The position numbers and the translations under genes are program-made. DNA of 52,838 nucleotides from an uncultured bacterium (GTDB lineage: Bacteria > Patescibacteriota > Minisyncoccia > UBA6257 > 2-01-FULL-56-20), in contig CAVUWW010000013.1 in the NCBI GenBank assembly GCA_963745135.1, positions 1 to 52,838 of the forward strand. The letters run 5' to 3'. The stretch's first letter is position 1. Each line of letters opens with the position of its first letter. The notes under the pieces were generated by a model. The model did no database searches. It had not been told where the DNA came from and saw only the letters and a list, made by a program, of their open reading frames with translations. Shown here one piece after another: positions 4,366 through 34,966 of the stretch.

Positions 4366-5451
4366 ATGCAATCTTCTTTTAATCTTTTCCGGCGCACGTT
4401 TTCCGGCTCCTGCCTCGGCGTGGACATCGGTACGACTTCCATCAAGATTGTCGAAGTGGCGGGCGGCAAGGAGAAGCCGGCGGTCCTGAACTACGGGCTT
4501 TTGGAATCGAGCGGCTATCTTGCGCGGTCGAACCAGGCGTTCCAGACGAGCAGCTTAAAAATCTTCGAGGCGGAGGTCGCGGAGCTCTTAAGGGCGCTCG
4601 CGCGGTCGGTGCGGGCCGGGACCAAGAACGCGATCGCGTCCCTGCCGGTGTTCTCGGCGTTCACGACCGTGCTCGACTTCCCGCAAATGCCGCCGCAGGA
4701 GATTGAGCAGGCGCTCATTTTCCAGGCGCGGCAGTACGTGCCGTTGCCGCTTTCGGAAGTTTCGCTCGATTGGCTGAAGGTGGGCGAGTACGAGGACGAC
4801 AAGGGTTTCGCGCACCAGAAAATATTCCTGACTTCGATTCCCAACGAGCAGATAAAAAAATACCAGAATATGTTCGCCGCAGCCGGATTGCATCTGGTCG
4901 CGCTCGAGCTCGAAAGCTTGAGTTTGGCGAGATTGTTCGGCAACGATTCCACGCCCACAATCCTCGTGGACATCGGCAGCCGCTCGACGGACATCGTGTT
5001 CCTCGAGTCCGGCAATCTCGTCTGGAACGCGCAGAGCGATTTCGGCGGCGCGTCGCTCACGCAGGCCTTGGCCTCAAGCTTGGGCGTGAACCCGCTGCGC
5101 GCGGAGGAATTGAAGAAGGAGCGCGGCATCCTTGGCACCGGCCCAAGCTATGAGTTGTCCACAATCATGCTTCCGTTCGTGGATGTTATAATAAATGAGG
5201 TGAAGAAAGCCGATTTCGCTTACCGGCAGCAGTTCCCCGCCGCGAAAAAAGCGGAGCGGGTGATGCTCGCTGGCGGCGGCGCGAACTTGCTTGGCATCGA
5301 GAAATATTTCGAGCGCGAGTTCGGCGTCCCTGCAGTGAAGGCCGCGTCCTTCGTCAGGTTCGGCTATCCGCAGGAGATGGAGCCGCTCGTCCCCGAGCTG
5401 AATCCGCTGATGAGCGTGGCACTGGGGTTGGGGATGAGGAATTTCGTGTAG
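4366..5451 (+). CDS. pilM: type IV pilus assembly ATPase-fold protein PilM
   Basis: 361 aa with an actin-like fold signature CLGVDIGTTSIKIVEV and DIGSRSTDIVF. It is the first gene of the pilus operon. Confidence 0.85.
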   Translation: MQSSFNLFRRTFSGSCLGVDIGTTSIKIVEVAGGKEKPAVLNYGLLESSGYLARSNQAFQTSSLKIFEAEVAELLRALARSVRAGTKNAIASLPVFSAFTTVLDFPQMPPQEIEQALIFQARQYVPLPLSEVSLDWLKVGEYEDDKGFAHQKIFLTSIPNEQIKKYQNMFAAAGLHLVALELESLSLARLFGNDSTPTILVDIGSRSTDIVFLESGNLVWNAQSDFGGASLTQALASSLGVNPLRAEELKKERGILGTGPSYELSTIMLPFVDVIINEVKKADFAYRQQFPAAKKAERVMLAGGGANLLGIEKYFEREFGVPAVKAASFVRFGYPQEMEPLVPELNPLMSVALGLGMRNFV

Positions 5452-5549
5452 GCATACGAATGTACGAATCGGTACGAATATACGAATAGGAAATCAAAAA
5501 AATTAATCTCCCATTCGTATATTCGTAAAAATTCGTAAATTCGTATGCC
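5451..5549. repeat. inverted array hairpin, GGCATACGAAT...ATTCGTATGCC family
   Basis: 4 TACGAAT units, a loop, then 4 ATTCGTA units. It starts at the last base of the pilM stop codon and contains the next ATG (5545) in its last 5 nt. Confidence 0.85.
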
Positions 5550-6141
5550 ACTACCGCAACAAGTCGTCGAAAAATTGAGCCGCGAGCCGATTAAGACGCC
5601 CGGATGGTCGGGCGGGGTTTTGTTCTATTCGGGCGTGCTTTTGGCCGTGGTCGTCGTCATTTACGCCGGACTTTCGTTCGTGTACGCGCCAATCCTGAAT
5701 GCGCGCATCGCGGGCGCCGAAAGCAAAATTTCCGCATTGAGCAATACGATTTCCGCGTCGGACGAGCAGCAGCTTGCCACCTATTATTCCCAGATATCGA
5801 ACCTCCGCTTGCTCATACAGAACCACATCGTCCTTTCACCGTTTTTCGCGTGGCTCGAAGGGCACACGGAAGCGAACGTCTCCTATGCCAACTTGAATTT
5901 TTCTGCGGGGAACCAGGTTGCGCTCACGGCGACCGCGCTAACGGAAGCCGACGTGAACCAGCAGGTCGCGATTTTCCAGGCGGCGCCGGAAGTGAAGATG
6001 GTGAATGTTTCCAACCTTTCGTTCGTCGCGACGAACAATATGTGGCAGTTCAGTGTGTCCCTCGTGATGCAGCCGTCAATGTTCACGTGGCAGCCGCAGG
6101 GCGGCGCGGCGACAGGATCGGCGACGTCGAGCGGGCAGTGA
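5545..6141 (+). CDS. PilN-like single-pass pilus assembly protein
   Basis: 198 aa with one N-terminal TM helix (VLFYSGVLLAVVVVIYAGL) followed by a coiled region. It sits directly after pilM. Confidence 0.55.
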   Translation: MPLPQQVVEKLSREPIKTPGWSGGVLFYSGVLLAVVVVIYAGLSFVYAPILNARIAGAESKISALSNTISASDEQQLATYYSQISNLRLLIQNHIVLSPFFAWLEGHTEANVSYANLNFSAGNQVALTATALTEADVNQQVAIFQAAPEVKMVNVSNLSFVATNNMWQFSVSLVMQPSMFTWQPQGGAATGSATSSGQ

Positions 6142-6148
6142 TGAAGAA

Positions 6149-6201
6149 GGGTCTGGGGTCTAGGGTATAGTGAACCCCAAACCCCAAACCCCAAACCCTA
6201 C
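6149..6201. repeat. inverted array hairpin, GGGTCT/GGGTAT vs ACCCCAA units
   Basis: Sequence gggtctggggtctagggtatag-tg-aaccccaaaccccaaaccccaaaccctac. It fills the gap between stop 6141 and ATG 6204. Confidence 0.8.
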
Positions 6202-6203
6202 TA

Positions 6204-6812
6204 ATGAAGCAATCTTCAAAAAGATTAATCAGTATGCTCCTCGCCCTCGTCTTTTTGGTTGCCGCGTTCATCGGTTTTTTTGACTTCATCCAGCCAGCCT
6301 ACGGCAACATCGGGAACCTGCGGGGCGAGGCGTCCGCGGAACAGCAGCTTTTGACGACGCTTACGGCGACCGTGCAGCAGGCGCAGGCACTTCTCAGCTC
6401 GTACGGCAGCCAAAGCTCGAGTACGGCGGGAATTGGCATGGTTCTGCCGGCGGGGACCGACGTGGCTGGCGCGTTGGCGCAGGTGAACGGCATTGCGACG
6501 GCCGACAATCTCACCATTACCTCGATTGCCGTTTCTACGCCGGTGCTCCAGACGCAGCCGGCCACAAGCGTTTCCTCGACTTTAGCGACCGCGAAGCCGG
6601 CGGGCGAGTTCTCGCTGAAGATCGCGGCGACGGGAAGCTATGAGAGTTTCAAAAGCTTCCTGTCGGACATTGAAACAAACATCCGGCTGTTCGACGTGGA
6701 GAGCGTTTCCCTGCAGCCGGTCGCCGCCGCCGCAGCTTCAGGGAAAAGGTCGGTGTCCGTGGACTATTTCACGTATAATATAGTGGCGCAGACGTATTAC
6801 CAGACCCCTTAA
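6204..6812 (+). CDS. PilO-like pilus assembly protein
   Basis: 202 aa with an N-terminal TM helix (LISMLLALVFLVAAFIGFF). Assigned from its position in the pil operon. Confidence 0.5.
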   Translation: MKQSSKRLISMLLALVFLVAAFIGFFDFIQPAYGNIGNLRGEASAEQQLLTTLTATVQQAQALLSSYGSQSSSTAGIGMVLPAGTDVAGALAQVNGIATADNLTITSIAVSTPVLQTQPATSVSSTLATAKPAGEFSLKIAATGSYESFKSFLSDIETNIRLFDVESVSLQPVAAAAASGKRSVSVDYFTYNIVAQTYYQTP

Positions 6813-6816
6813 AGAA

Positions 6817-6902
6817 GGGTATGGGGTATAGGGGATAGGGTATAGTGAAGAAATTCCGTACCCTATACCCTATACCCTATGCCCTATGCCCTATACCCTA
6901 CC
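6817..6902. repeat. inverted array hairpin, GGGTATR / ACCCTAT family
   Basis: Left arm gggtatggggtataggggatagggtatag, loop tgaagaaattccg, right arm (taccctat/gccctat) x6. The ATG at 6904 follows 1 nt later. Confidence 0.85.
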
Positions 6903-9159: not shown

Positions 9160-10234
9160 ATGGACGACTTCAAGCAAAAACTAAACGACCTGCTCACCGC
9201 CACGGCGCGGCAGAACGCTTCCGACCTCCACATCGCCGTCGGCAAGCGGCCGACGTTGCGTATTGACGGGGTTCTCGTGCCGCTCCAGAAGGAGCCGGTC
9301 TTGACGCCCGAGATGGCGGAGGGAATCATCGGCGCGATGATATCGCCCGAGCAGAAAGAGAGGCTTGCGAAGGACCGGCAGGTGGACTTCGCCTACAGCT
9401 TCGAGGACAAGGCGCGGTTCCGCGTGAACGCTTTCTACCAGCGGGGGTATCTGGCTGCGGCATTGCGTTTGGTTCCCGGGCGCGTGAAGGACATTGAAGA
9501 GCTGAACCTGCCGCCGCTCCTGCACGACTTTACGAAACTTTCCCAAGGTTTCATTTTGGTCGTGGGTCCGGCGGGGCATGGCAAATCCACAACGCTCGCC
9601 GCGATGATCGACGAGGTGAACCACACCCGCTCCGACCATATCATCACGATCGAGGATCCGGTGGAATATCTCTTTACGCAGGACAAGTGCATCGTCTCCC
9701 AGCGCGAGGTGGGAAGCGACACCATTGGCTTCCACGCCGCGCTCCGGACCGTCCTGCGGCAGGATCCCGACGTCATCATGATCGGCGAGATGCGCGACGC
9801 GGTCTCGATTGACACTGCGATGACGGCGGCCGAGACCGGCCACTTGGTGCTCGCAACGCTGCATACTAATTCCGCCGCGCAGACAATCGACCGAATCATT
9901 GACTCGTTCCCCGCCGAGCAACAGGGGCAATGTCACTTCGCAATTGGCGGCCACCTTGGTTGCTATAGTTTCAGAGCGGCTTTTGCCGCGCATCTCCGGC
10001 GGCCGCGTGCCTGCGCTCGAGATCATGATTGTGAACCCCGCCATCCGCAACCTGATCCGCGAGCGCAAAGTGTATCAGATTGACTTGGTGATTGAGACCA
10101 GCTTGCAGGAAGGCATGGTAACGCTGAACCGGTCGCTCGCGAATTTGGTGAAGAACAAAGAAGTGACGCTCGAGAACGCAGAGCTGTATTCATTGAATCC
10201 TGCCGAGTTGAGGATTTTGCTGGAGAGGATGTAG
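9160..10234 (+). pseudogene. pilT: twitching-motility ATPase PilT, interrupted by a +1 frame break
   Basis: ORFs 9160..10083 (Walker A GPAGHGKST) and 9899..10234 (RISGGRVPALEIMIVNPAIRNLIRE) are two halves of one PilT. Deleting one G of the GGGG run at 9924..9927 fuses them. Confidence 0.8.
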
Positions 10235-10318: not shown

Positions 10319-11530
10319 ATGAAGTTCAAGTATCAGGCCCGAACCAAAGAAGGGGAGCTCCAAGTCGGCATCATTGACGCCGGCTCGCGCGACGCAGCTT
10401 TGCAGATTTTGGCGGGGCACGAGCTTTACACCTTGAGCGTCGAGACGGCAACGGCGCCGCAGTGGTACGACCGGATCGGGGAATTTTTCGGCCGCGTCAG
10501 GCGCCGGGATCTCGTCATCTTTTCGCGCCAGCTTGCGACGCTCCTCGAGGCGCGCCTGCCCTTGAACAACGCCTTGCGCGTGCTCCATGAGCAGACCGTG
10601 AACGCGCGGCTCAAGGAGGGGATTTTGCAGATGTCCCAGGACATTGACGCCGGGCTTTCGTTTTCGCAGGCGCTCGAGCACCAGGGGCGCATGTTCCCTT
10701 CATATTACATGGAGATGGTGCGGGCGGCGGAGGTGACAGGGAATCTTGCCGAGATATCGGGCTTCCTCGCCGATTACACGGAGCGCGAAGGCGACCTCGC
10801 GAGCAAGGCGTCTTCGGCGATGATCTATCCGGGCATCGTCCTTGGGCTTTTTCTCGTCGTCGGTTTCATCCTGCTCACATTCGTCTTTCCGCAGATTAAG
10901 CCGGTCTTCGACCAGAGCGGCGTGACGTTGCCGTGGTACACCGCGTTTTTCTTGGGGGCGGGCACTTTCATGCAGCAATGGTGGCCGGCGATAATTGTGG
11001 CGGCGTTCGTGCTTGGGGTTGTTGTCTTTGATTATTTCCGCACGCCCGAAGGCATTGCGCTGTTCGACGACCTGAAGATCCGCCTGCCGGTTTTGCAGAA
11101 AGTTTTTTTGCCGCTCCTCATGGCGCGGTTCGGGAATTCGGCGGAGCTTCTGATCCATGGCGGCGTCCCGCTCGCGCAAGCGCTCGAGATCATCAGCCAC
11201 ATGATGGGGAATGTCTTGTACGAGGACGTGGTGCACCAGGTTGCGGAGGACGTGCGGCAGGGGAAATTGCTATCGGAAAGTTTGGCGGACTACCCGCGCT
11301 ATTTCCCGATCATGGTGCCGCAGATGGTGTCGGTCGGCGAGACGACAGGAAAGATTGAGGAGATGTTTGGGCGTCTTTCGAAGATCTATACGCGCGAGGC
11401 AAACCAGACGATGGACAACCTGGTGGACCTCATCCAACCCATTCTCATGATTGGCATGGGCGCGATGGTGGGACTTTTGTTCGCATCAATTCTCGTGCCG
11501 CTCTACCAGCTGACGGCGAGCATACATTAA
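10319..11530 (+). CDS. pilC: type IV pilus platform protein PilC (T2SS F family)
   Basis: 403 aa with duplicated T2SSF-type domains and three hydrophobic segments. Confidence 0.9.
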   Translation: MKFKYQARTKEGELQVGIIDAGSRDAALQILAGHELYTLSVETATAPQWYDRIGEFFGRVRRRDLVIFSRQLATLLEARLPLNNALRVLHEQTVNARLKEGILQMSQDIDAGLSFSQALEHQGRMFPSYYMEMVRAAEVTGNLAEISGFLADYTEREGDLASKASSAMIYPGIVLGLFLVVGFILLTFVFPQIKPVFDQSGVTLPWYTAFFLGAGTFMQQWWPAIIVAAFVLGVVVFDYFRTPEGIALFDDLKIRLPVLQKVFLPLLMARFGNSAELLIHGGVPLAQALEIISHMMGNVLYEDVVHQVAEDVRQGKLLSESLADYPRYFPIMVPQMVSVGETTGKIEEMFGRLSKIYTREANQTMDNLVDLIQPILMIGMGAMVGLLFASILVPLYQLTASIH

Positions 11531-11534
11531 AGAA

Positions 11535-11747
11535 GGGTATGGGGGATAGGGTATAGGGTGAAGAGAAGAAAGAAGAATTTGCCCTGTGGATAACAAGAGA
11601 AGTTACGCGGTTTGACAATGATATACTTAAATAAATATCAAAAAGGTCGAGAAAGTTACTGAAAAATCAGATTAAAAAAAGAAAAGGGCTAGGAATTTTG
11701 GGCTTGGATTGAATATCTATACCCTATACCCTATACCCTATACCCTA
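11535..11747. repeat. GGGTATR / ACCCTAT inverted arrays separated by a ~155-nt A/T-rich spacer
   Basis: Left arm 11535..11560 and right arm 11717..11747, which is (ctatacc) x4. The pilin ATG at 11748 abuts the right arm. Confidence 0.75.
11612..11641 (+). promoter_or_regulatory. possible pilin promoter (TTGACA, 17-18 nt spacer, ATATCA/TATCAA)
   Basis: Perfect -35 TTGACA at 11612..11617 inside the spacer of the split hairpin. The -10 box is weak. Confidence 0.3.
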
Positions 11748-12242
11748 ATGCGAAATGGATTTACTTTGATTGAAATTCTCATCGTGGTCGCGATCATCGC
11801 CATTTTGGCGTCAGTCGTGCTCATCGGCCTTGGCCCAACCCAGCAGTCCGGCCGAGACGCGCGGCGGCTTTCCGACCTCCATGAGGTGCAGAACGCCATC
11901 GAGCTGTACTACCAGAAGTGCGGTTTCTATCCGGGCAGCGTAAGCGGTTCTGGTCCCACTGCAACTTGCGTTTCGCTTAACAGCCAAACCTATACTGGCA
12001 TGAGCGCTGCGATTTTGAGCGCCGGCATCGGCATCACGTCTCCCTTGCCGCTTGATCCGACGAACAATGCCACGTATTATTATTTCTACGGGACGAACGG
12101 CGCCACCTATATCCTCGGCGCGACGCTCGAAAACACGAATAACGCGGTGTTCAGCGGTTACCAAAACCCCCTGCCGACTTCGAACGTAACCATGCCCGGC
12201 GGGCAAAACTGCAACAGTCCTGAATATTGCATGTCATTGTAG
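11748..12242 (+). CDS. type IV pilin (prepilin with class III signal peptide)
   Basis: Start moved to MRNG/FTLIEILIVVAIIAILA, the canonical prepilin cleavage/methylation motif. Confidence 0.9.
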   Translation: MRNGFTLIEILIVVAIIAILASVVLIGLGPTQQSGRDARRLSDLHEVQNAIELYYQKCGFYPGSVSGSGPTATCVSLNSQTYTGMSAAILSAGIGITSPLPLDPTNNATYYYFYGTNGATYILGATLENTNNAVFSGYQNPLPTSNVTMPGGQNCNSPEYCMSL

Positions 12243-12303: not shown

Positions 12304-12394
12304 TTACGAAAGTACGAATACAGTACGAAAATACGAATATCCATCACAGTGCAGGTTATTCGTATTTTCGTAAATAATTCGTAATTTCGTAAAC
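12304..12394. repeat. inverted array hairpin, TACGAAW / WTTCGTA units
   Basis: Left arm ttacgaaagtacgaatacagtacgaaaatacgaatat, right arm ttattcgtattttcgtaaataattcgtaatttcgtaaa. Confidence 0.8.
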
Positions 12395-13415: not shown

Positions 13416-13982
13416 ATGAAAAAGGGATTTACCTTGGTCGAAATGCTCATCGTGCTTGCCATTTCCGCGCTCCTTGCGGGCATCGCCTTGAGCTATAACA
13501 GCGCGAGCCGGAAAGAGATTGCGCTCTCGGTGGAGGCGGCAAAGATCTCCCAATTCATCCTGCAGGCGGAATCGCTCTCCATTGCGACCTACGGCGCCAA
13601 TTCCGCGACCCTTGTGTGCGGGTATGGGATGGTCTTCAACGCCGCAGCGCAGACCTACGGTATTTTCGAATACCAGCCGGCTGGCGCGACGACGTGCAGC
13701 GGCGTTGCTTTGCCTCTCGCTTCCATCGCCGCCGGGGAGATGCAACAATACACGCCGGGGACGTGGAACATCCACGTGGCTCCGGAGGTGCGCCTCGTGA
13801 GCGCCTCGACGGACAGCATAGCAGTCGTCCTCTTCTATCCGCCGGCGCCGACGACTTACATCAGCCGCGACGGAAGCAATTTCCTTTCCCCGACCGTGAC
13901 CTCAAAAATTTACCTCACGACGGCGGACGGCAGCGATGCGAGGACGATCAGCGTGAATTCGGAGGGGCAGGTGAGTTTTTGA
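13416..13982 (+). CDS. minor pilin (prepilin-type N-terminal cleavage/methylation domain)
   Basis: N-terminus MKKG/FTLVEMLIVLAISALLAG. Confidence 0.85.
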   Translation: MKKGFTLVEMLIVLAISALLAGIALSYNSASRKEIALSVEAAKISQFILQAESLSIATYGANSATLVCGYGMVFNAAAQTYGIFEYQPAGATTCSGVALPLASIAAGEMQQYTPGTWNIHVAPEVRLVSASTDSIAVVLFYPPAPTTYISRDGSNFLSPTVTSKIYLTTADGSDARTISVNSEGQVSF

Positions 13983-13989
13983 ATTTGAA

Positions 13990-14062
13990 GGGTATAGGGT
14001 ATGGGGTATAGGGTATAGTGAAACCCTAGACCCTAGACCCTAGACCCTAGACCCTAGACCCT
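13990..14062. repeat. inverted array hairpin, GGGTATR x4 / ACCCTAG x6
   Basis: Sequence gggtatagggtatggggtatagggtatag-tg-aaaccctag(accctag)x4 accct. The ATG at 14063 abuts the right arm. Confidence 0.9.
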
Positions 14063-14605
14063 ATGCAAAGTCAATCCTCACAATCCGGGCAATCGTTGAT
14101 CGAGGCCATGATTGCCATCAGTTTGCTCACCGTCGGTTTCATCGGCATCGCGGCGTTGCTCTCGCAGTCGCTCTATCTCACGCGCGTCATTTCCGACCAG
14201 ACGACGGCGACCTATCTTGCGTCCGAAGGCATTGAGCTTGCGAAGAACCTGATTGATCATGACGTGTATATGCACCTTGCGGGATTGGGAACCGGTTGGG
14301 GAACTTGCTTCAATATCAGCAATCCCGGGACGACCGAGATCGAGCTTGATTACACCTCGCTTGATTGCAGCAAGGCCTATTTCGCCGGAGATTTTTTGCA
14401 GTTCGATCCGGTGACCGGACTTTATGGCTACAGCTCTGATCTGCCGGCTGCGGACAATCCCATCCCGACCAAGTTCACGCGTGAGATTGACATTAATTTG
14501 CAGGGCAACGAGATTACCGTGAATTCCAAAGTCAGGTGGAACACCGGCGCGTTCACGTCGCAGAGCGTCAATCTGGAAGATCATTTTTACAATTGGAGGC
14601 AGTAA
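14063..14605 (+). CDS. pilin-like protein (PilV-like minor pilin)
   Basis: N-terminus MQSQSSQSGQSLIEAMIAISLLTVGFIG, a prepilin-type hydrophobic N-terminus. Confidence 0.75.
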   Translation: MQSQSSQSGQSLIEAMIAISLLTVGFIGIAALLSQSLYLTRVISDQTTATYLASEGIELAKNLIDHDVYMHLAGLGTGWGTCFNISNPGTTEIELDYTSLDCSKAYFAGDFLQFDPVTGLYGYSSDLPAADNPIPTKFTREIDINLQGNEITVNSKVRWNTGAFTSQSVNLEDHFYNWRQ

Positions 14606-14612
14606 TTTTTAA

Positions 14613-14671
14613 GGGTATGGGGTATAGGGTATAGTGAAACCCTAAACCCTAAACCCTAAACCCTAAACCCT
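14613..14671. repeat. inverted array hairpin, GGGTATR x3 / ACCCTAA x5
   Basis: Sequence gggtatggggtatagggtatag-tg-aaaccctaa(accctaa)x3 accct. The ATG at 14672 abuts the right arm. Confidence 0.9.
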
Positions 14672-15277
14672 ATGCAACGCCAATCTCCACAATCCGGCCA
14701 GTCCCTCATCGAGCTTCTCGTCGCCATCGGCCTCTTCTCTATCCTCTTTGCCATTGCGGGCGGGGGATTCGTGAACGCGCTCCATGCCCAGAACCAGGTT
14801 TCGGCGGAGATGGCGGCGGAAAGCAACGTCGGCATCGCGATTGAGGAGATGGCGCGGGAGATGCGGACCGGCTACCTTTTCTGCCACGATTTGAACGGCG
14901 TTTCAACGTGCGACACGAGCGATCCCTCGTACAATCGCCACTGCACATTCGATGCGGCAACCCAACTGCTCACCTGCTCCGACCTTGAATATTACGACGC
15001 GAACGGCGAGAAAATCGATTACGTCCTGAAGGGCGGCGTCCTGGAACGCGGAGACAACGATGCGTACCAGCCGATCACGGGGGATAATGTGACCGTGCGC
15101 TCGCTCTCATTCGTCCTTCACGGCAATACGGAAGGCGACCATTGGAACCCGCGGATCACCGTCACGATCGGCATTGCGCCGAACAATTCGGGCGTCTCAT
15201 GGAACACGGTTGACTTCCAGACCACGGTGAGCGCAAGGGAGATTGATTGCACGGCGGGAGCGAGCCCGAGCTGCTGA
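14672..15277 (+). CDS. pilin-like protein (PilW-like minor pilin)
   Basis: N-terminus MQRQSPQSGQSLIELLVAIGLFSILFAI. Confidence 0.75.
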   Translation: MQRQSPQSGQSLIELLVAIGLFSILFAIAGGGFVNALHAQNQVSAEMAAESNVGIAIEEMAREMRTGYLFCHDLNGVSTCDTSDPSYNRHCTFDAATQLLTCSDLEYYDANGEKIDYVLKGGVLERGDNDAYQPITGDNVTVRSLSFVLHGNTEGDHWNPRITVTIGIAPNNSGVSWNTVDFQTTVSAREIDCTAGASPSC

Positions 15278-17091: not shown

Positions 17092-17168
17092 ATCTCGGAA
17101 TTATAGGAACAAATTTTCAATGAGGCAACACGGAGCATTACGCGAAGCTGCGCTTCGCGTCGTCCAGA

Positions 17169-17435
17169 CCCCATTTCCATAATATCTCCAGCCCGCGTTG
17201 CGAGCAATTTTGCCCGAGTGCCAGGCGCGGCGAAGGAGACAATGGCTCACGCCATGGCTCCGAGTCCCAACGCCGCGATTCGGGCGAAATCGCCGCAACC
17301 CTCCGGGATTTGCCCAAACGCCGCAATGGCTGCGTTGCCTTGGGCTCGCGGTACCGAAAGGTACGGCTTCGCCCTCGCGCCTTGCCCTTGCGGCGCTTGG
17401 GTCGAATCGCGGGCGGAGAGATTATGGAAATGAGG
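17169..17435 (+). ncRNA. unclassified structured RNA, copy A (paralog of 23196..23465)
   Basis: 21-bp closing helix (17169..17189 with 17415..17435). At least 5 further helices change compensatorily relative to copy B. G.U pairs favour the plus strand. Confidence 0.7.
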
Positions 17436-17545
17436 TCACCACTAGACGATGGGAGCCGTCTTCAGGAGTTTAATAAATTTCAGGCGTTCCCGCAACTTTT
17501 TTTTATTGTTGGCAGGGCACGAAATTCATAATACAATTGATTTAT

Positions 17546-18314
17546 ATGGCAAGAGTCATCGCGGTTTGCAACCAGAAGGGCGGTGTGGGGAAGACCACGA
17601 CCTGCACTTCACTCGGCGCTTACCTCGCGCTCGCCGGACGACGGGTGCTTTTGATTGACTTTGACCCGCAGGCGAACGCGAGCTCGGCTTTCGGGGCACC
17701 ATTATGCGAACGTGATGAAGAGCATCTATCACGGCATCATCGGTGCGGCGTCGCCCGAGGAGATCACGAAGCCGACCGCGATCTACAATTACCATTTGAT
17801 CCCCGCCGCGCCGCATTTGGCGGGGATGCTCATCGAGCTTGTGGGCGAGCCGGAGCGGGAATACTTTTTGCGGAAGTTCGTGAACCGCGTGCGGCACGAG
17901 TACGATTACATTCTGATTGACCTGCCGCCGAGCTTGAGCTTGCTCACCGTGAACGGGCTTGTCGCCGCGGACGAGGTCATCATCCCGGTTCAGGCGGAGT
18001 ATTACAGCTTGGAGGGCATCGGGCAGCTGCTCGAAACGATTGAGCTTATCAGGAATAATTTGGGGCATCCGATCCGCGTTTCGGGCGCGCTGATTACGAT
18101 GTATAATAAGCGGGAGCACTTGAGCCGCGAAGTGGCGAAGAACCTACGCGACCATTTCCCGCATCGCGTGTTCGAAGTTGAGATTCCGCGCAGCATTGCG
18201 CTCGCTGAAGCCCCAAGCTACGGCATGCCGATCCTGCTCTACCGCCCGGATTCGAACGGTGCGGCGGCGTATAAAAAATTGGCGGAGGAAATTATAAGAG
18301 AAGAAAGGGCATAG
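17546..18314 (+). pseudogene. parA: chromosome partitioning ATPase ParA/Soj, interrupted by a +1 frame break
   Basis: [18 protein letters not shown] (deviant Walker A) is in one frame and [14 protein letters not shown]... to the end is in the +1 frame. Deleting one G of the GGGG run at 17693..17696 fuses them. Confidence 0.8.
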
Positions 18315-18358
18315 GGTGCAGAACTCTTAACCCCAGACCCTAAACCCCAGACCCTAAA
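18307..18358. repeat. inverted array hairpin, GGGCATAGGGTG / ACCCYAR units
   Basis: The loop gcagaactctt is shared with the element at 30484. The left arm overlaps the parA stop and the right arm abuts the parB ATG at 18359. Confidence 0.75.
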
Positions 18359-19414
18359 ATGCTAGGAAAAGGTTTGGAATCATTGATTCCCCAAAAAAGC
18401 GGCGGCAACGGCGACAATAACGACAGTCATGACGACGGGCAGATTTCCGTGCCGCAAGACGTGAATTCAAGTCTGGCGCCTGTGGATGAGCCGGAGGACA
18501 TGGGTCTCGGGTCTAGGGTCTCGGGTCTAGGGGAAGAGAAAAAATCAGAAACCCTAAACCCAAGACCCCAGACCCTAAACCCTAAGCCCGAACAAATTTT
18601 CGGTTCGATATTCCAGATTGAAGTTGACAAGATCTCGCCGAACCCGGACCAGCCGCGGCGGCATTTCGACGAGACGGCTTTGCACGACCTTGCGCGTTCC
18701 ATCCGCGAGTTCGGTTTTCTCCAGCCGCTCGTAGTCTCGAAAATCGAAAAGGAATCGCCGACGGGCATTGACGTCGAATACCAGCTCATCGCCGGCGAAC
18801 GGCGTTTGCTTGCGGCGAAATTGCTTGGCTTGCGGCTCGTGCCTGCCATTATCAGGAACGTCCATCTCGAGCGTGAAAAATTGGAGCTTGCCGTCATCGA
18901 GAACATCCAGCGCGAGGACTTGAATCCCATCGAGACCGCGCACGCGTTCCAGCGGCTGCAGGAAGAGTTTCGCATGACCCAGCGCGAGATTGCGGCGAAG
19001 CTCGGCAAGTCGCGGGAAGTTGTCGCGAATACCGTGCGGCTGCTCGACCTGCCGGAATATATCCAGGAGGCGGTCCAGAAAGGGGATCTGTCCGAAAGCC
19101 ATGCGCGCTTGCTGCTTTCGATCGGCGATCCGGGCGCGCAGAAAAGGTTGTTCGACGACATTTCCCTGAACCGCCTCACGACGCGCGATGTGAAGGAGCG
19201 CGTGAAGCAGATTGCAAAGCCACGCGAGCCGCGCGAAGGAGCGGAAATCTCGCCGGAGCTGAAAGCCATGCAGGAGTCATTGAGTTCAGCCCTCGGTGCG
19301 CCGGTCGAGATCCATAAAGGAGCGAACACCGGAAAGATCACGATTGTATTTTATTCGCAGGAAGAGCTGGAGAACATTTTGCAGAAATTGAAAAGCGGGG
19401 AGGGAAATCAATAA
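18359..19414 (+). CDS. parB: chromosome partitioning protein ParB/Spo0J
   Basis: 351 aa with N-terminal GKGLESLIP, ParB box ISPNPDQPRRHFDE and LIAGERRLLAAK. It carries an in-frame repeat-element insert. Confidence 0.9.
   Translation: MLGKGLESLIPQKSGGNGDNNDSHDDGQISVPQDVNSSLAPVDEPEDMGLGSRVSGLGEEKKSETLNPRPQTLNPKPEQIFGSIFQIEVDKISPNPDQPRRHFDETALHDLARSIREFGFLQPLVVSKIEKESPTGIDVEYQLIAGERRLLAAKLLGLRLVPAIIRNVHLEREKLELAVIENIQREDLNPIETAHAFQRLQEEFRMTQREIAAKLGKSREVVANTVRLLDLPEYIQEAVQKGDLSESHARLLLSIGDPGAQKRLFDDISLNRLTTRDVKERVKQIAKPREPREGAEISPELKAMQESLSSALGAPVEIHKGANTGKITIVFYSQEELENILQKLKSGEGNQ
18502..18589. repeat. GGGTCTM / ACCCTAA-type hairpin element inserted in frame inside parB
   Basis: Left arm gggtctcgggtctagggtctcgggtctagggg, loop, right arm aaaccctaaacccaagaccccagaccctaaaccctaagccc. 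Translated as GLGSRVSGLGEEKKSETLNPRPQTLNPKP. Confidence 0.85.
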
Positions 19415-19679: not shown

Positions 19680-19750
19680 CGAATAGCTGGAGAAAATATA
19701 ATATGCTTAACTATTGATGTCAAGCAAGTAAGTTAATTCAGTTCATTTTT

Positions 19751-19790
19751 TCATTTGCTCATTCGTTCAAATGAACGAATGAGCAAATGA
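19751..19790. repeat. 40-nt near-perfect palindrome TCATTTGCTCATTCGTTCA/TGAACGAATGAGCAAATGA
   Basis: Related copies lie at 38499..38522 and 49427..49460. Confidence 0.85.
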
Positions 19791-19792
19791 AA

Positions 19793-19957
19793 CCTGGATC
19801 CCGGGTCAAGCCCGGGATGACAGAGAAGGGATTCCGCGCGCAAATCGAGGCATTTTCCGAGCAGGCGCGGGATGCTTCATTCGCCAAGTGCTGCCGAGGG
19901 AATGAAGCGCCCGCGCCCGCGCAGGAAAATTCAATGGCCGTTTGGATTTGCGCGCGG
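19793..19957 (-). repeat. 3'-flank element (GCGCGCAAATCC ... GGATTTGCGCGC clamp, inner hairpin, GTCATCCCGG REP end)
   Basis: The reverse complement aligns along its length with 35861..36025. It starts directly after the relA stop. Confidence 0.8.
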
Positions 19958-22231: not shown

Positions 22232-22361
22232 AGCTTGGTAGGCAAAAGCTCTTTTATAACAGATATTCCAAGGATTTACTGCTTCGTTGCAGCTTCCAGC
22301 TTGTCGCACAAACGATGCGTTGAAAGCTGCAACCAAGCGGCAGAAAGAAGGAGGAACCGCC

Positions 22362-23063
22362 ATGCTTACTCATGGAACCGCCTCGCAACTTCATGTTGAC
22401 GGGGGATACGTTGAATTTCAACAGGCAGTGCTTCGCGCCCTGCCTCACGACATCGATCCGAACATCGCCGACGGGTGGCGAAACAACACGGGAGCGCTCG
22501 CAAAAGTTTTGCGCGAGGCCCTGCTTCCGCCGGACAATCCCGCAACGGAAGCCGCTCCGGTTCCCAAGCCCGAACCGCAACCGCTCCTCATCCCCGTCTG
22601 CACGGAGAAGGTTTTCCCGAGAGTGGCTTTCACGGCTCGCGACCGCTTCGTCGTAAACACGAAGAAGAACGCACCCGTGAAGATCTCCTATCTGGGAGAC
22701 AACTTCAAGGCGTGGTTCCTCGGCAAAGAGGAGCAACCGTTTGCGGGATCGACCCTCAACTGCAGCAAGCTCTCGCGCTACTCCGTCGACGGCCCGATTA
22801 TCAAGGAACTCGGCGGCGAGGAAAAGGCCGAGACCACGCTCGCCGAACTCTTTTCGCTCATGGAAATGCAGAAGAACGGCGAAAGCGGTGCGCTGCTCAC
22901 AAACGGATACGCCAATATCTTTTACATCAAGGATACGGCCGGCGGTCTCCGGACGGTGGACGCGCGCTGGGGCGGCGTCGGCTGGCTCGTGCACGCCTTC
23001 GCCGTGGCGCACCCGTACGAGTGGAGCGACGGGTGCCGGGTCTTCTCCCGCGATTCTCGTTAG
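22362..23063 (+). CDS. DGR target protein (variable C-terminus, no signal peptide)
   Basis: Start moved to ATG 22362, preceded by AAGGAGG at -13..-7. The last 38 codons form the VR. The C-terminus ..WGGVGW...YEWSDGCRVFSRDSR is like C-type-lectin-fold DGR targets. Confidence 0.8.
   Translation: MLTHGTASQLHVDGGYVEFQQAVLRALPHDIDPNIADGWRNNTGALAKVLREALLPPDNPATEAAPVPKPEPQPLLIPVCTEKVFPRVAFTARDRFVVNTKKNAPVKISYLGDNFKAWFLGKEEQPFAGSTLNCSKLSRYSVDGPIIKELGGEEKAETTLAELFSLMEMQKNGESGALLTNGYANIFYIKDTAGGLRTVDARWGGVGWLVHAFAVAHPYEWSDGCRVFSRDSR
22939..23052 (+). other. DGR variable repeat (VR)
   Basis: Gap-free alignment to 23667..23780. All 23 mismatches are at adenines of the template copy. Confidence 0.9.
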
Positions 23064-23111
23064 CACTCGGTCGCTTTGCCCTTTTAACCCTTGGACACTC
23101 TGTCCCTTTGA

Positions 23112-23150
23112 CCCCCGCATCTTCTTCGGAAGCGGCGGGGGTTTTCTTTT
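23112..23150 (+). terminator. intrinsic terminator after the DGR target gene
   Basis: Stem cccccgc / gcggggg followed by ttttctttt. Confidence 0.7.
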
Positions 23151-23151
23151 G

Positions 23152-23160
23152 TGCTATGAT
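23152..23160 (+). promoter_or_regulatory. extended -10 box TGcTATGAT upstream of the structured RNA and TR
   Basis: gTGcTATGAT is the same 10-mer as at 13394..13403. Confidence 0.45.
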
Positions 23161-23195
23161 AAATCACGAAGGCAATGAATTCTGCGGAACGGCTA

Positions 23196-23465
23196 GACCC
23201 CTATCTCGAAAATAATTCAGCTCGCGTTGCGAGCGATTTTGTCCGAGAGCTAGGCAGGACAAGGAGGCAATAGTTTTTACTATGGCTCCGCAGTCCTAAC
23301 GACGCGATCGGACAAAATCGCCGCAACCCTCTGGGATCTGGCCAAATGCCACAATGGCTGCGTTGCTTCGGGTTCGCAGTACCATGAGGTACAGCTTCAC
23401 CCTCGCGCCTTGCCCTTGTGGCATTTGGCCGAGATCGCGGGCGAATTATTTTCGAGATAGGGGTC
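23196..23465 (+). ncRNA. unclassified structured RNA, copy B (inside the DGR cassette)
   Basis: Perfect 23-bp closing helix (23196..23218 with 23443..23465) followed by a U-run. Conserved core blocks and covarying helices relative to copy A. Confidence 0.7.
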
Positions 23466-23666
23466 TTGTTTTTCCGCCATGCCTTCGGGAAAACGCTCTG
23501 CCGGAATCACGTCGGGTACGCTTGCCGTGAGTGCGCAGGACGGAGTACTCTTACGCAACATACGAGAATTGGTATCTGCGGCTGGCGGACTTCTACGTCC
23601 CGAATACGATACAGTCCTGAGAGTAATCGAAGGGCAGTGGCGCGGATGGCCGCGGATACGAGACGA

Positions 23667-23780
23667 CCGGCGATCTCCGGACGGTGAACGCGAACTGGAA
23701 CGACGACGGCTGGAACGTGAACGCCAACGCCGTGACGAACCCGAACGAGTGGAACGACGAGAACCAGGTCTTCTCCCGAA
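23667..23780 (+). other. DGR template repeat (TR)
   Basis: In the VR frame it reads TGDLRTVNANWNDDGWNVNANAVTNPNEWNDENQVFSRN. Every Asn codon is AAC. Confidence 0.9.
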
Positions 23781-23791
23781 ACTGTCGTATG

Positions 23792-23825
23792 GCCTCCCGC
23801 TATCTCGCGGGAGGCTTGCTTTTTA
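23792..23825 (+). terminator. hairpin plus U-run directly 3' of TR
   Basis: Stem gcctcccgc / gcgggaggc, then ttgctttttat. The loop contains the avd stop codon on the other strand. Confidence 0.55.
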
Positions 23826-24144
23826 TGCCGTTGATCCAGCCGCCGAGCTGCCTCCCCACCTCGTCGAACTTTTCCGAAAGTAAGATATACTTCTGGTTGT
23901 CGAGCGCTCCCACGTCCCAGAGTATCTGCAAAAAGAACTTCGCCACGTCGAGCCGCACGTTCGCTTTCTGGAGATAGGGCAGCTTCTGCTCCTTGCCCAA
24001 GTAGCTTGCGATGAACAGCAGTTCAGCCGTTTCAACTAACGAGCGATCGATCTTTGTGCCGAGCGAATATCTGAAATCTTTCGGCATGTGCGGCAGGAAC
24101 TCGTGCCAGGCCTTGTATGCGGCCACCAGGTGCTGGATGATCAA
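23800..24144 (-). CDS. avd: Avd-like accessory variability determinant (four-helix bundle); start uncertain
   Basis: ..AYKAWHEFLPHMPKDFRYSLGTKIDRSLVE...LSEKFDEVGRQLGGWINGIK resembles Avd / 23S-IVS four-helix-bundle proteins. The long ORF to 24351 is antisense to the RT, so TTG 24144 is taken as a provisional start. Confidence 0.7.
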   Translation of the reverse strand: MIIQHLVAAYKAWHEFLPHMPKDFRYSLGTKIDRSLVETAELLFIASYLGKEQKLPYLQKANVRLDVAKFFLQILWDVGALDNQKYILLSEKFDEVGRQLGGWINGIKSKPPAR

Positions 24145-24158
24145 AAGCTGGGAACTGC

Positions 24159-24169
24159 GGGGGGGGGGG
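24159..24169. repeat. G11 / C11 homopolymer between avd and RT
   Basis: 11 consecutive G, 19 nt upstream of the RT ATG. Confidence 0.9.
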
Positions 24170-24188
24170 TACGTGAAAATTTGAATCC

Positions 24189-25244
24189 ATGAAGATACAG
24201 TTTGCCGGAAATTTGGAAAAAATCGCGAGCGCCGAAAACCTGCTGGAAGCTTGGCGGGAATTCTTGCCGGGCAAGCGCGGAAAGCATGACGTGCAGGAAT
24301 TCCAACTGCGGCTGATGGATAATATTCTATCACTCCGCGCCGATTTGACAAACGGTACGTACCGCCACGGCGGGTATCAGCATTTCAAAATCGCCGACCC
24401 GAAGCCGCGCGACATCCATAAGGCAACCGTGCGCGACCGCCTCGTCCACCACGCCATTTATCGCCAGCTCTATCCATTCTTCGACAAGACGTTCATCGCC
24501 GACTCCTTTTCCTGCCGCGACGGCAAGGGGACGCATGCGGCGCTGGATCGGTTTTGCGTGTTCGCACGGAAAGCCAGCAAGAACAACACGCGCGCCTGTT
24601 GGATCCTGAAGTGCGACATCCGTAAATTCTTCGCGAACATTGACCATCAAATTTTATTGGAGATTTTGGGAACATATATTCCGGACAAAAAAATTTTGCG
24701 GTTGCTGCGGGAAATCATCGAAAGCTTTTCTTCGACCATGCCCGGCATCGGCTTGCCCCGCCCTTTTGGAGCAAAACCAAAAGAGCGGGGCTTGCCGCTC
24801 GGCAACCTCACTTCGCAATTGTTTGTGAACGTTTACATGAACGAATTTGATCAATTTGCAAAACATACATTGAAGGCAAAATACTATGTCCGCTACGCCG
24901 ACGATTTCGCCGTCTTTTCCCCGAACCGCGATTGGCTCGAAATCATCCTGCCTGAAATCCGGAATTTCCTTTTGAACCGGCTCAAGCTAAATCTACATCC
25001 CGAAAAAGTTTCAATCAGAACCATTGCCTCGGGCGAGGATTTCCTCGGCTGGGTGCATTTTCCCGACCACCGCGTTTTGCGGACGGCGACGAAGCGGCGA
25101 ATGATGAGGAGATTGGCGGACCATCCGAAAGAAGAAACGATCCAGTCTTATCGCGGGCTTTTGGGCCATGGGAATGCGCAGAAGTTGACATCGAGATTAA
25201 AAGGCTTTTGGGTTGCAAACGAAAATGCAACGGATGCCTTTTGA
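24189..25244 (+). CDS. DGR-type reverse transcriptase
   Basis: 351 aa with RT motifs including LPLGNLTSQLFVNVY ([I/L]GxxxSQ) and YVRYADDFAVF. No maturase or endonuclease domains. Confidence 0.9.
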   Translation: MKIQFAGNLEKIASAENLLEAWREFLPGKRGKHDVQEFQLRLMDNILSLRADLTNGTYRHGGYQHFKIADPKPRDIHKATVRDRLVHHAIYRQLYPFFDKTFIADSFSCRDGKGTHAALDRFCVFARKASKNNTRACWILKCDIRKFFANIDHQILLEILGTYIPDKKILRLLREIIESFSSTMPGIGLPRPFGAKPKERGLPLGNLTSQLFVNVYMNEFDQFAKHTLKAKYYVRYADDFAVFSPNRDWLEIILPEIRNFLLNRLKLNLHPEKVSIRTIASGEDFLGWVHFPDHRVLRTATKRRMMRRLADHPKEETIQSYRGLLGHGNAQKLTSRLKGFWVANENATDAF

Positions 25245-25720: not shown

Positions 25721-25722
25721 TA

Positions 25723-25811
25723 GGCATACGAATGTACGAATTTTTACGAATATACGGACGGGAAACTCAATCTCTTATTCGTATATTCGTACCGATTCGT
25801 AAATTCGCATG
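25723..25811. repeat. GGCATACGAAT...ATTCG hairpin element (near-identical to 27513..27600)
   Basis: Shares both arms and the loop gggaaaYtcaatctc with the copy at 27513. The ATG at 25809 lies in the last arm unit (attcgcATG). Confidence 0.85.
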
Positions 25812-26357
25812 ACCCTCTCAGATAAAACCATGAATAAACCACTATCTATAGCAATTTTCATCATCCTCGTCATTGCGGTCATTGCGGGCGCGGTTTGGTA
25901 CAGCAATAATGTTTTGCAGGGCAATATGGTGAACGGCATCGGGCAAGCGGCAAGCAGCACGGGACAGCCGGCGGGGAATATAAATCAAGCGACAAGCGCT
26001 AACGCTACAACCACAAACATGAACCAAGGCCAATTGCAGATTACGGACCTCGTCGTGGGCACGGGGACGGTGGCGGAGAACGGCGACACGGTGAACGTGC
26101 TTTACACGGGGACGCTCGACGACGGTACTGTGTTCGACGCTTCGTCCATGCACGGCAACCAGCCGTTCAGCTTCACCCTCGGCGCGGGACAGGTCATCAA
26201 GGGATGGGATGAGGGCGTGCTTGGCATGAAGGTTGGCGGCAAGCGCGAGCTCGTCATCCCGCCTTCGCTTGGCTATGGCGCGCAGGGAGCCGGTAATACC
26301 ATCCCGCCGGACGCGACGTTGCATTTTACGGTTCAGCTTTTGTCAGTCGGGCAATAG
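25809..26357 (+). CDS. FKBP-type peptidyl-prolyl cis-trans isomerase with N-terminal membrane anchor
   Basis: Motifs GDTVNVLYTGTLDDGTVFDAS, FTLGAGQVIKGWDEGVLGMKVGGKRELVIPPSLGYG. An alternative start is at 25830. Confidence 0.85.
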   Translation: MTLSDKTMNKPLSIAIFIILVIAVIAGAVWYSNNVLQGNMVNGIGQAASSTGQPAGNINQATSANATTTNMNQGQLQITDLVVGTGTVAENGDTVNVLYTGTLDDGTVFDASSMHGNQPFSFTLGAGQVIKGWDEGVLGMKVGGKRELVIPPSLGYGAQGAGNTIPPDATLHFTVQLLSVGQ

Positions 26358-27116: not shown

Positions 27117-27512
27117 GTGAACCATCGCCACGGTCAAGCATTCCTTTCCGTCGTCCTGCTCATCGGCACCATCGTGATAGTCGTCGGGACAACCATTGCC
27201 TTCGTCACTGTGGCTTTCATTGATAGCAGCTACGGCACGCAGGCATTGCAGGGCGCCGAAGCCACGGCGATGGCGGGCATCAAGGACGCGCAATTGCGCC
27301 TGGCCAGGGGCGACCTTACAAGCGGCGGTGTCTACGCTCTTCCGACCATCGCTGGATCGGCAGCCGTCACGGTCACGCCGCCGAGCGCCGGCCTCGCGAC
27401 GGTCCTTTCCATTGCCACCGTCAACTTCCGCACACGGAAGATCCAAGCCGTGTTTTCAATTGACCCCACGACGGGGAAAGTGACGGAAGTGTCGCAGGTG
27501 GAAATTCAATGA
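27117..27512 (+). CDS. PilX-like pilus-associated protein (GTG start)
   Basis: 131 aa with an N-terminal hydrophobic helix GQAFLSVVLLIGTIVIVVGTTIAFV, then QALQGAEATAMAGIKDA, as in the PilX N-terminal domain. Confidence 0.5.
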   Translation: MNHRHGQAFLSVVLLIGTIVIVVGTTIAFVTVAFIDSSYGTQALQGAEATAMAGIKDAQLRLARGDLTSGGVYALPTIAGSAAVTVTPPSAGLATVLSIATVNFRTRKIQAVFSIDPTTGKVTEVSQVEIQ

Positions 27513-27600
27513 GGCATACGAATGTACGAATAGTTACGAATATACGAATGGGAAATTCAATCTCTTATTCGTATATTCGTACCGATTCGTAAATTCGTAA
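27513..27600. repeat. GGCATACGAAT...ATTCGTAA hairpin element
   Basis: Near-identical to 25723..25811. It starts 1 nt after stop 27512, and ATG 27609 is 8 nt downstream. Confidence 0.85.
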
Positions 27601-27608
27601 CCCTACCA

Positions 27609-29806: not shown

Positions 29807-29929
29807 GGCATACGAATTTACGAATCGGTACGAATATACTAATAAGATTAGTAGCGGAACCATTCCAAACATTCGTGTACCCATTCTGAATTATTCGTAT
29901 ATTCGTACAAATTCGTACATTCGTATGCC
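29807..29929. repeat. GGCATACGAAT...ATTCGTATGCC hairpin element (long-loop copy)
   Basis: Same termini as 5451..5549. The lepB ATG at 29925 lies inside the terminal ATTCGTATGCC. Confidence 0.85.
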
Positions 29930-30479: not shown

Positions 30480-30483
30480 AGAA

Positions 30484-30560
30484 GGGTATAGGGTTTCGGG
30501 TATAGGGTATAGGGTGCGGAACTCTTGACCCTAGACCCTAGACCCTTGACCCTAGACCCT
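30484..30560. repeat. inverted array hairpin, GGGTATA / ACCCTAG family
   Basis: Left arm gggtatagggtttcgggtatagggtatagggtg, loop cggaactctt, right arm gaccctagaccctagacccttgaccctagaccct. The ATG at 30565 follows 4 nt later. Confidence 0.85.
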
Positions 30561-30564
30561 GCCA

Positions 30565-34889: not shown

Positions 34890-34899
34890 ATTGTTAGAA

Positions 34900-34966
34900 G
34901 GGTATAGGGTCTAGGGTATGGGGTATAGGATACCCTAAACCCTAAACCCTAAACCCTAAACCCTAA
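34900..34966. repeat. inverted array hairpin, GGGTATR x4 / ACCCTAA x5
   Basis: Sequence gggtatagggtctagggtatggggtatagg-a-taccctaa(accctaa)x4. The secF ATG at 34967 abuts the right arm. Confidence 0.9.

Follow-up and report, generated by a model that had tools for sequence, protein, structure and literature searches.

The stretch of DNA considered here, hereafter the window, is the 52,838-nt contig CAVUWW010000013.1 of an uncultured bacterium of the Patescibacteriota, and it contains two related copies of a highly structured sequence, copy A at 17167–17437 (271 nt) and copy B at 23196–23465 (270 nt), as measured from terminal repeat to terminal repeat. The locus raises the question of what kind of element this is. 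A preliminary description, which placed both copies correctly with slightly different borders, regarded them as a structured RNA of no known class read from the plus strand, explicitly not a mobile element, and possibly connected with the diversity-generating retroelement (DGR) in which copy B lies. The structure is real and lies outside Rfam, while the statements on mobility, strand and the DGR do not hold. Copies A and B are probably non-autonomous DNA transposons of the miniature inverted-repeat transposable element (MITE) type that carry a conserved structured core; their being mobile MITE-like elements at all is very probable, and action of the core as RNA is a tentative proposal, with the doubts slightly outweighing the support. 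The reading as a DGR-linked RNA class is replaced by the better supported one of a mobile element, and the locus illustrates that variable complementary ends around a conserved interior do not rule out such an element.

Family members and their architecture

The scan of species-representative genomes yields one full-length homologue, at positions 6216–6478 of locus L089 from the Patescibacteria isolate REEB161, which is 75–76% identical to the window copies. The metagenome scan, performed with the blocks of arm 2 only (GGCTGCGTTGC N(25-55) GCGCCTTGCC), yields at least 120 loci, nearly all of them genuine, and in metagenomes from soil and sediment the core is very frequent. As the two exact blocks are invariant by search design, true conservation is judged only from arm 1, a few extra model matches and the Azotobacter copy described below. 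No relative of copy A is found in viral contigs, where two conserved-block scans give chance matches only, or in phage and plasmid records searched by blastn; similarly, blastn returns nothing when phage and plasmid collections are searched with a typical soil module, or plasmids with the Y-type metagenome copy L239.

Folding of the metagenome loci listed reveals two architectures, a single long hairpin of ~156–171 nt, in which the block pair sits at the tip, and a Y-shaped form of 263–276 nt. Arm 1 of the Y form repeats the arm-2 module as its reverse complement (CAAGGCGCG...GCAACGC), and on the opposite strand it is matched by a covariance model built from 85 arm-2-type modules (E = 7e-8 in L263, 9e-6 in L089 and 0.003 in copy A). 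The core hairpin is asymmetric (a U bulge versus a CUU bulge, and a G.U pair), and this asymmetry is kept over more than 120 loci. The subfamilies differ in their terminal repeats (GTGTCC..., GGGCTCG..., GGAGCCCG..., and GACCCC... in the window copies) and share one core, which is an unusual feature.

The host range extends from Patescibacteria to Pseudomonas and Azotobacter (Pseudomonadaceae). In Azotobacter chroococcum, a Y-type copy with the core variant GCGGCGTTGC occupies positions 19135–19405 of plasmid pAcX50f (NZ_CP010421.1), where no feature is annotated under the match, and this plasmid exemplifies finished genomes in which the family goes unannotated. As cultured hosts exist, both mobility and RNA function are directly testable. 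The family is large, gene-less and apparently undescribed: full-text searches for the core sequences return only 454-adaptor and primer noise, and literature searches on MITEs of candidate phyla and on IS427/IS1031 MITEs return nothing relevant. The repeat families R6 (177 bp), R26 and R200 are listed for P. fluorescens (Silby 2009, PMC2718517); known here by description only, they might overlap with the present family. As long as no description of the family exists, its members will continue to be called novel structured RNAs by annotation pipelines and RNA-motif screens.

Several irregular members are found in the metagenomes. L260 and L292 are half elements, consisting of arm 2 and the right terminal repeat without arm 1, with the truncation point at the CCC-NNN-GGG linker between the arms, and the half element of L260 lies directly downstream of the 3' end of a tRNA gene. 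L220 (1514–1992) and L202 (67–246) contain paired modules in opposite orientation, adjacent or overlapping, which may be nested or head-to-head insertions. On the soil contig L228, a group II intron domain (10135–10209; Rfam RF00029, 45.2 bits) lies ~800 nt from a single-hairpin element, probably by coincidence.

Insertion at TA and TNA sites

The element of L089 (263 nt) interrupts the open reading frame (ORF) of a conserved 136-aa gene, for which a Pfam search finds no family. Nearly all of the 120 listed homologues of this gene (of 570 passing the E-value threshold) are 136 aa long, and 13 aligned homologues run without a gap through ...NGQPNY(I/L)GGATFLEIF...; deletion of the element plus 2 nt (265 nt) gives back exactly this length and frame. 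From the junction codon, ATA or CTA with GG after it, the target is reconstructed as (C/A)TAG. A filled and an empty site are found in Pseudomonas, where contig L263, with a GlyA 98% identical to that of P. mandelii JR-1, carries a 265-nt Y element at a position at which seven P. mandelii loci, fetched via GlyA, read CAGCTC-CTAG-ACTCAG, the flank being 96.5% identical.

Perfect direct flanks, placed symmetrically outside the inverted repeats, occur in 29 of the 57 distinct single-hairpin elements listed (TA 21, TAA 4, TTA 4), compared with 1–3 of 57 in shifted controls, and TA within CTAG is the commonest pattern. TA is self-complementary and could merely extend the palindrome, while TAA...TAA and TTA...TTA are direct and not inverted; there are eight such non-palindromic TNA repeats in the 57-element screen and ~12 when the Y-type and hand-inspected copies are added. 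The Y-type copies with duplications are L238, L239, L264 and L212 (TA), L284 (TTA) and the Azotobacter copy (TA), which reads CTA/GGGTCTGTTGACG...CGTCAACAGACCC/TAG with its flanks (slashes mark the element borders).

For the window itself, the gene order TsaD, tRNA-Glu, ParA, ParB, RelA is preserved in the closest syntenic relative, L313 (RelA 84% identical), whose spacer between tRNA-Glu and parA is ~165 nt long and lacks the element; L313 also lacks the DGR. Because of the split gene, the empty site, the duplications and the L313 comparison, the closing helix of the preliminary description is identified as the terminal inverted repeats of a non-autonomous transposon, and the exclusion of a mobile element is reversed. 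The family inserts at TA (usually in CTAG) or T-N-A, duplicates those bases, leaves filled and empty sites and can split genes. It shows the defining characters of MITEs, i.e. a size below ~300 bp without coding sequence, terminal inverted repeats (present in every homologue), target duplications and filled/empty sites. As to cargo, no conserved ORF is found within the elements, and ORF clustering finds no recurrent neighbouring gene among the at least 120 loci.

Structure of the window copies

Each copy is predicted to fold into a Y, with a terminal stem and two arms of ~100 nt, and its parts are as follows (no strand is given for parts other than the arms and blocks).

Copy A
17167–17437: whole element, Y-type (sequence, alignment with copy B and L089, fold)
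17167–17189: left terminal inverted repeat GACCCCATTTCCATAATATCTCC, the 5' strand of the closing helix (pairing, and covariation of the equivalent helices in a 14-sequence alignment)
17197–17299, minus: arm 1, a diverged reverse-complement core hairpin module (model match 17192–17305, minus strand, E = 0.0027)
17299–17307: linker CCC-TCC-GGG between the arms (CCC and GGG invariant in 14 of 14 Y-type homologues)
17307–17408, plus: arm 2, core hairpin module (model match 17300–17414, plus strand, E = 1.2e-14)
17328–17338 and 17377–17386, plus: blocks GGCTGCGTTGC and GCGCCTTGCC of arm 2
17415–17437: right terminal inverted repeat (sequence, fold)

Copy B
23196–23465: whole element, Y-type (sequence, alignment, fold), with left flank CTA (CTA/G...) and right flank TTG
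23196–23218: left terminal inverted repeat GACCCCTATCTCGAAAATAATTC (23 of 23 positions pair with 23443–23465)
23226–23327, minus: arm 1, a diverged inverted core module (aligned with arm 1 of copy A and 12 homologues; no match to the module model at E ≤ 1)
23327–23335: linker CCC-TCT-GGG (sequence, alignment)
23335–23436, plus: arm 2, core module (model match 23328–23442, plus strand, E = 8e-16)
23356–23366 and 23405–23414, plus: blocks GGCTGCGTTGC and GCGCCTTGCC of arm 2
23443–23465: right terminal inverted repeat (sequence, fold)

The alignment of the two copies has a mean column identity of 84%. All conserved blocks and helix pairs listed in the preliminary description are found in both copies, including the fully paired closing helix of copy B, and in copy A 20 of 22 positions pair with 17415–17437 (the 22 being counted from A17166, one base upstream). 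The arms are 81–82% identical and the closing helices ~56% (14/25 and 15/27 aligned positions); since the latter share the start GACCCC and the end G(G/A)GGTC, they can not be called entirely different, as had been proposed. Conserved pairing of GCCCGC (in copy B GCTCGC) with GCGGGC prolongs the closing helix, and the arms are linked by CCC-TCY-GGG in both copies. When the right half of copy A is reverse-complemented, the left half aligns with it also beyond the closing helix. The conserved blocks have no further occurrence in the window, where the module model also matches at copies A and B only.

The folding energies on the plus strand are −159.7 kcal/mol for copy A and −167.1 kcal/mol for copy B (z = −9.4 and −16.2 versus dinucleotide shuffles), and those on the minus strand, −162.0 and −162.6 kcal/mol, are equal to them in quality. 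The counts of wobble pairs on the plus and minus strands are 4 versus 6 in copy A, where a C.A mismatch of the closing helix is a G.U pair on the minus strand, and 2 versus 1 in copy B. Because both strands fold equally well and the wobble counts are near-even, the strand can not be read from these two copies, and the assignment to the plus strand, which had been based on G.U pairs supposedly occurring on that strand only, is not established by them. A search of Rfam 15 with the window copies finds no family at gathering score and none at E ≤ 10, and a search with the window and 18 homologous loci finds no family match, only sub-threshold matches to generic miRNA hairpins, in agreement with the view that no known RNA class is represented.

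Selection on the structure is evident from 14 Y-type elements (three from candidate phyla and 11 from metagenomes, Pseudomonas included), for which RNAalifold predicts 65 pairs with compensatory double changes in 51, so that the covarying secondary structure noticed between the two copies extends to their homologues. In this structure 87.9% of cells pair, versus 36–44% with slid 3' partners, the covariation score is 0.60 versus 0.09–0.16, and none of 500 shuffles reaches any of these measures. Although the metagenomic members were found through arm 2 alone, the linker CCC-NNN-GGG is invariant in all 14; so are AGGC and AAC(G) in arm 1, which lies outside the search pattern. The basal helix of the module covaries over 85 sequences. 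Covariation of the terminal stem could stem from both ends having to fit one transposase, an explanation that can not account for the arms, because their pairs also show double changes (21 of 23 in helix 5, and 13 of 17). In L089, an extended rod competes with the Y fold.

Polarity of the single-hairpin elements

Among the 55 single-hairpin elements listed, 51 fold better on the strand that carries the core as GGCAAGGCGC...GCAACGCAGCC, the mean advantage over all 55 being 12.7 kcal/mol (Wilcoxon p = 2.5e-10). When the core is swapped for a tetraloop, the stems alone favour the same strand in 50 of 55, and they contain 188 G.U pairs on the favoured strand versus 58 on the other. Because strand-symmetric decay of a palindrome would give equal numbers of wobbles, use of one polarity as a single strand is suggested; a mutational bias, as the source of the excess, would need to be coupled to the orientation of the core. 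As judged from sequence, the simplest reading is that the single-hairpin elements serve in single-stranded form and with one polarity, or at least are transcribed that way. RNA and folded single-stranded DNA (ssDNA) can not be told apart with the tools applied; RNA is favoured because target duplications and inverted repeats fit transposition of duplex DNA by a DDE transposase, while neither feature is known from single-strand transposons.

Candidate mobilising transposase

By their duplications and end sequences, the present elements are compatible with two DDE families. Elements of the IS630 family duplicate TA within CTAG. The IS427 and IS1031 groups of the IS5 family generate 2–4-nt T(N)A duplications and have ends starting with GA or GG (ISfinder). 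In P. syringae, duplications of 3 nt arise with the IS5-family element ISPsy19, and the insertion sites of MITEPsy1 are CTAG or YTAA (PMC3189936). MITEPsy1 resembles the present family in its CTAG/YTAA insertion, short duplication, repeats beginning with GG or GAG, and mobilisation in trans; it differs in being 100 nt long with 18-nt repeats that match those of its parent ISPsy2 (PMC3189936), whereas the present elements are 160–275 nt long, form a covarying hairpin over their whole length and have no parent found. The ends observed in the single-hairpin elements are GTG, GGG, GGA and GAG, and no parent IS is identified.

On pAcX50f, a frameshifted and unannotated IS630-family element (~17953–19132; HTH_32/HTH_29 and DDE_3) lies immediately before the Y-type copy in the order TA-IS-TA-element-TA, all three junctions being TA. 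Its repeats read TA/GTGTTATGACAC... and ...GTGTTGAGACAC/TA, and many subfamilies of the present family begin with TA/GTGTC..., resembling this copy (TA/GTGTCTCAACAC), the similarity being limited to a few bases. IS630 and its MITEs share with the family the TA duplication, the preference for CTAG and, in this one case, a common TA. They differ in that IS630 makes TA duplications only, whereas about a quarter of those found here are TAA or TTA (8 of 29), which does not fit an exclusively IS630-derived family; in addition, few repeat bases are shared and no transposase lies inside or regularly beside the elements. Other searches for a partner are likewise negative: Pfam matches of the window ORFs are to housekeeping genes only, without a transposon partner, tblastn with the Azotobacter IS630 transposase finds only an unrelated locus, and a terminal-repeat scan of 100 kb of pAcX50f finds the element itself only. 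Long-range inverted-repeat pairs, considered as a partner, turned out to be the genes of GlyA and a CBS-domain protein.

Nature of the elements and competing explanations

In the mechanism proposed here, the element, which contains, inside terminal repeats starting with G-N-G, either one asymmetric core (single hairpin) or two cores of opposite orientation joined by CCC-NNN-GGG (Y form), would be moved by a DDE transposase supplied in trans, for which the IS630 family and the IS427/IS1031 groups of the IS5 family are candidates. Selection on a single-stranded form with one polarity may maintain the full-length hairpin and its core. This form is taken to be a transcript, in which the RNA hairpin would be bound or processed by a conserved protein and would not be a by-product of the inverted repeats. 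The more specific proposal, that the core is a functional RNA or folded single strand needed for the spread or survival of the element, e.g. as ligand or guide for a transposase or host protein, seems unlikely at present. If true, this would be a phylum-spanning 'mobile RNA gene', in which the Y form would give the same 5'-arm structure from either strand and so work in either orientation.

Several observations weigh against the main reading, a mobile MITE-like element kept by selection on a single-stranded form. The polarity is weak in the Y form, with 35 G.U versus 18 A.C outside the forced pair and mixed energies, and is not decidable in copies A and B. As the arms are inverted, either strand of the Y form presents the favoured core in its 5' arm, which may explain the missing polarity. 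A scan for consensus promoters and terminators at the window copies finds none at the elements, and relative to neighbouring genes, as crudely called, the orientation is weakly biased, 65 elements being co-oriented with the less stable form versus 38 with the other, the better-folding strand being antisense if anything. No autonomous element with matching terminal repeats is found in the window, the at least 120 loci or 100 kb of pAcX50f; the adjacency to IS630 is a single case, and the 3-nt duplications are unexplained by IS630. Copies A and B have only ~6 terminal bases of their repeats in common, unusually few for a transposase that binds by sequence. Finally, the duplications are decayed in copy A (CA/AC), copy B (TA/TT) and L089 (CA/GG), and these three are regarded as insertions because of their homology to the family, the L089 gene and the L313 comparison, not because of their own duplications.

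The elements may alternatively be selfish MITEs acting as duplex DNA without any single-strand function, in which the palindrome results from inverted duplication of an end and the fitting of both ends to one transposase, and the core is a duplex binding site for the transposase or a host factor. The terminal repeats, duplications and filled/empty sites are as expected, as are the resemblance of the left half to the reverse complement of the right half and the equal folding of both strands in copies A and B, and co-evolving terminal repeats would mimic the covariation of the closing helix. This explanation is nevertheless improbable, as the compensatory changes span both arms (helices 5 and 8) and not the terminal repeats alone, the asymmetry of the core is maintained across the family, and a wobble excess of 188 versus 58 tied to core orientation is unexpected for duplex-only function or symmetric decay.

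A mobile element acting as folded ssDNA, with the hairpin or Y extruded and recognized by a structure-specific enzyme, as in integron attC sites and IS200/IS605 ends, would agree with the strand-specific tolerance of wobbles (G.T being the mildest DNA mismatch), the structure kept while the stem sequence varies, the narrow length classes (~156–171 nt and 263–276 nt) and the lack of a visible promoter at the window copies. Single-strand transposons (IS200/IS605, IS91) are not known to generate target duplications or to have terminal inverted repeats. Both are present here, and no HUH or tyrosine recombinase gene recurs nearby among the at least 120 loci, so that this possibility is rated as quite unlikely.

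A class of free-standing structured non-coding RNA genes, possibly serving the DGR as first proposed, is very unlikely. It would account for the strong covariation, the lack of an Rfam match and the position of copy B between the variable repeat (VR) and the template repeat (TR) of the DGR, possibly in the leader of the TR–reverse transcriptase transcript, but it is largely refuted by the split gene, empty site and duplications, which indicate movement as DNA. Moreover, no DGR lies near copy A, L089 or the copies of Pseudomonas and Azotobacter, L313 has neither DGR nor element, and the strand is left undecided by copies A and B.

An intron-like sequence removed from RNA, which would keep the split L089 gene functional, is hardly credible: both halves of this gene are intact and 64–84% identical to homologues despite the decayed duplication, and the ends of the element pair with each other, but the frame-restoring length is the element plus 2 nt, as for a transposon duplication, most copies are intergenic, no group I or II model matches at the element, and the structure is mostly a helical rod without obvious catalytic core. 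The remaining candidates are dismissed as follows: retron msr/msd (no reverse transcriptase beside copy A, and symmetric arms), bridge RNA (loops conserved rather than stems), K-turn (the bulge is not followed by G.A pairs), AAV-like T-shaped replication hairpin and attC (conserved part at the tip, not the base), and intrinsic terminator (no T-run).

Comparison with described elements

The closest analogues among MITEs are the Correia/NEMIS elements of Neisseria and the ERIC/IRU elements of enterobacteria, which are RNA-active and are thought to act as hairpins in transcripts. They resemble the mobile family described here in being small, ORF-less, intergenic and palindromic over nearly their full length, with terminal repeats and TA duplication. 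They share no sequence similarity with it and are confined to a genus or family, whereas the present elements range from Patescibacteria to Pseudomonadaceae; they also lack a two-core Y form and an asymmetric core common to subfamilies with different terminal repeats.

The REPINs and REP doublets mobilised by RAYT are likewise abundant intergenic hairpin repeats of Pseudomonas with conserved structure, but they are ~100 nt long, conserved at the hairpin base and variable at the tip, and make no target duplication, while in the present family the tip is conserved, the stem variable and duplications are present. The bridge RNA of IS110 and the omega RNA of TnpB/IscB (HEARO) are also structured RNAs tied to mobile elements, and the two arms with internal loops are superficially bridge-like. 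These RNAs have programmable guide loops, in contrast to the conserved loops and variable stems found here, where no recombinase or nuclease gene is adjacent; their systems lack terminal repeats and duplications, and the HEARO model gives no match to the present elements. The family differs from described MITEs in its conserved, asymmetric and covarying core at the tip, its one- and two-core forms and its host range.

Genomic context and other features of the window

Copy A lies between the promoter region of tRNA-Glu (minus strand) and the promoter of parA, and copy B between the strong terminator of the DGR target gene and the TR, in line with the locations given previously; insertion next to tRNA-Glu/parA and within the DGR cassette is incidental. 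The DGR is genuine, with 24 of the 27 VR/TR differences at TR adenines. Only copy B is located in a DGR, copy A, L089, L263 and the Azotobacter copy being elsewhere, i.e. of the three candidate-phyla copies a single one lies near a DGR, and with no recurrent neighbour gene, hence no reverse transcriptase, among the at least 120 loci, nothing indicates that the element serves the DGR. Judging by its position, copy B may belong to the 5' leader of the TR–reverse transcriptase transcript.

The DGR spans 22287–25244, with the VR at 22932–23060 in the target gene, the TR at 23660–23788 and the reverse transcriptase at 24189–25244, and the cassette is absent from the syntenic relative L313. No avd-like gene is recognised by Pfam in 23479–23883. 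The intrinsic terminator following the target gene (23107–23165, CCCCCGC...GCGGGGG with a T-run) was read by eye, the scan giving only a weaker overlapping stem at 23123–23141, and a possible extended −10 element, TGCTATGAT, lies just after it, upstream of copy B.

The parA gene (17546–18314) is split by a frameshift into 17546–17920 and 17655–18314, which match the N- and C-terminal parts of ParA/AAA_31, respectively, while the ParA of L313 is intact (258 aa). The split is either an assembly error or a pseudogene. For the ParB and RelA proteins of the window, exact-protein look-ups find no record.

Many intergenic spacers of the window contain arrays of heptamers in tandem, in which (AGGGTAT/AGGGTCT)n precedes its complement (ACCCTAA/ACCCTAG)n, and which form telomere-like repeat hairpins (families D1–D3). 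These arrays are located at ~6141–6213, 6809–6899, 11527–11571, 11694–11754, 13982–14076, 14598–14678, 18322–18362, 18494–18604, 30476–30574 and 34892–34985. A second intergenic family (D4, D6 and D9) comprises inverted arrays of TACGAAT-type octamers, with copies 85–95% identical, at 5450–5549, 12358–12394, 25722–25813, 27512–27603 and 29807–29929. In addition, an AT-rich perfect palindrome, TTCATTTGCTCATTCGTTCAAATGAACGAATGAGCAAATGAA (D5), occurs with two related copies (19737–19796, 38485–38523 and 49413–49459) and is the source of spurious miRNA-like Rfam matches.

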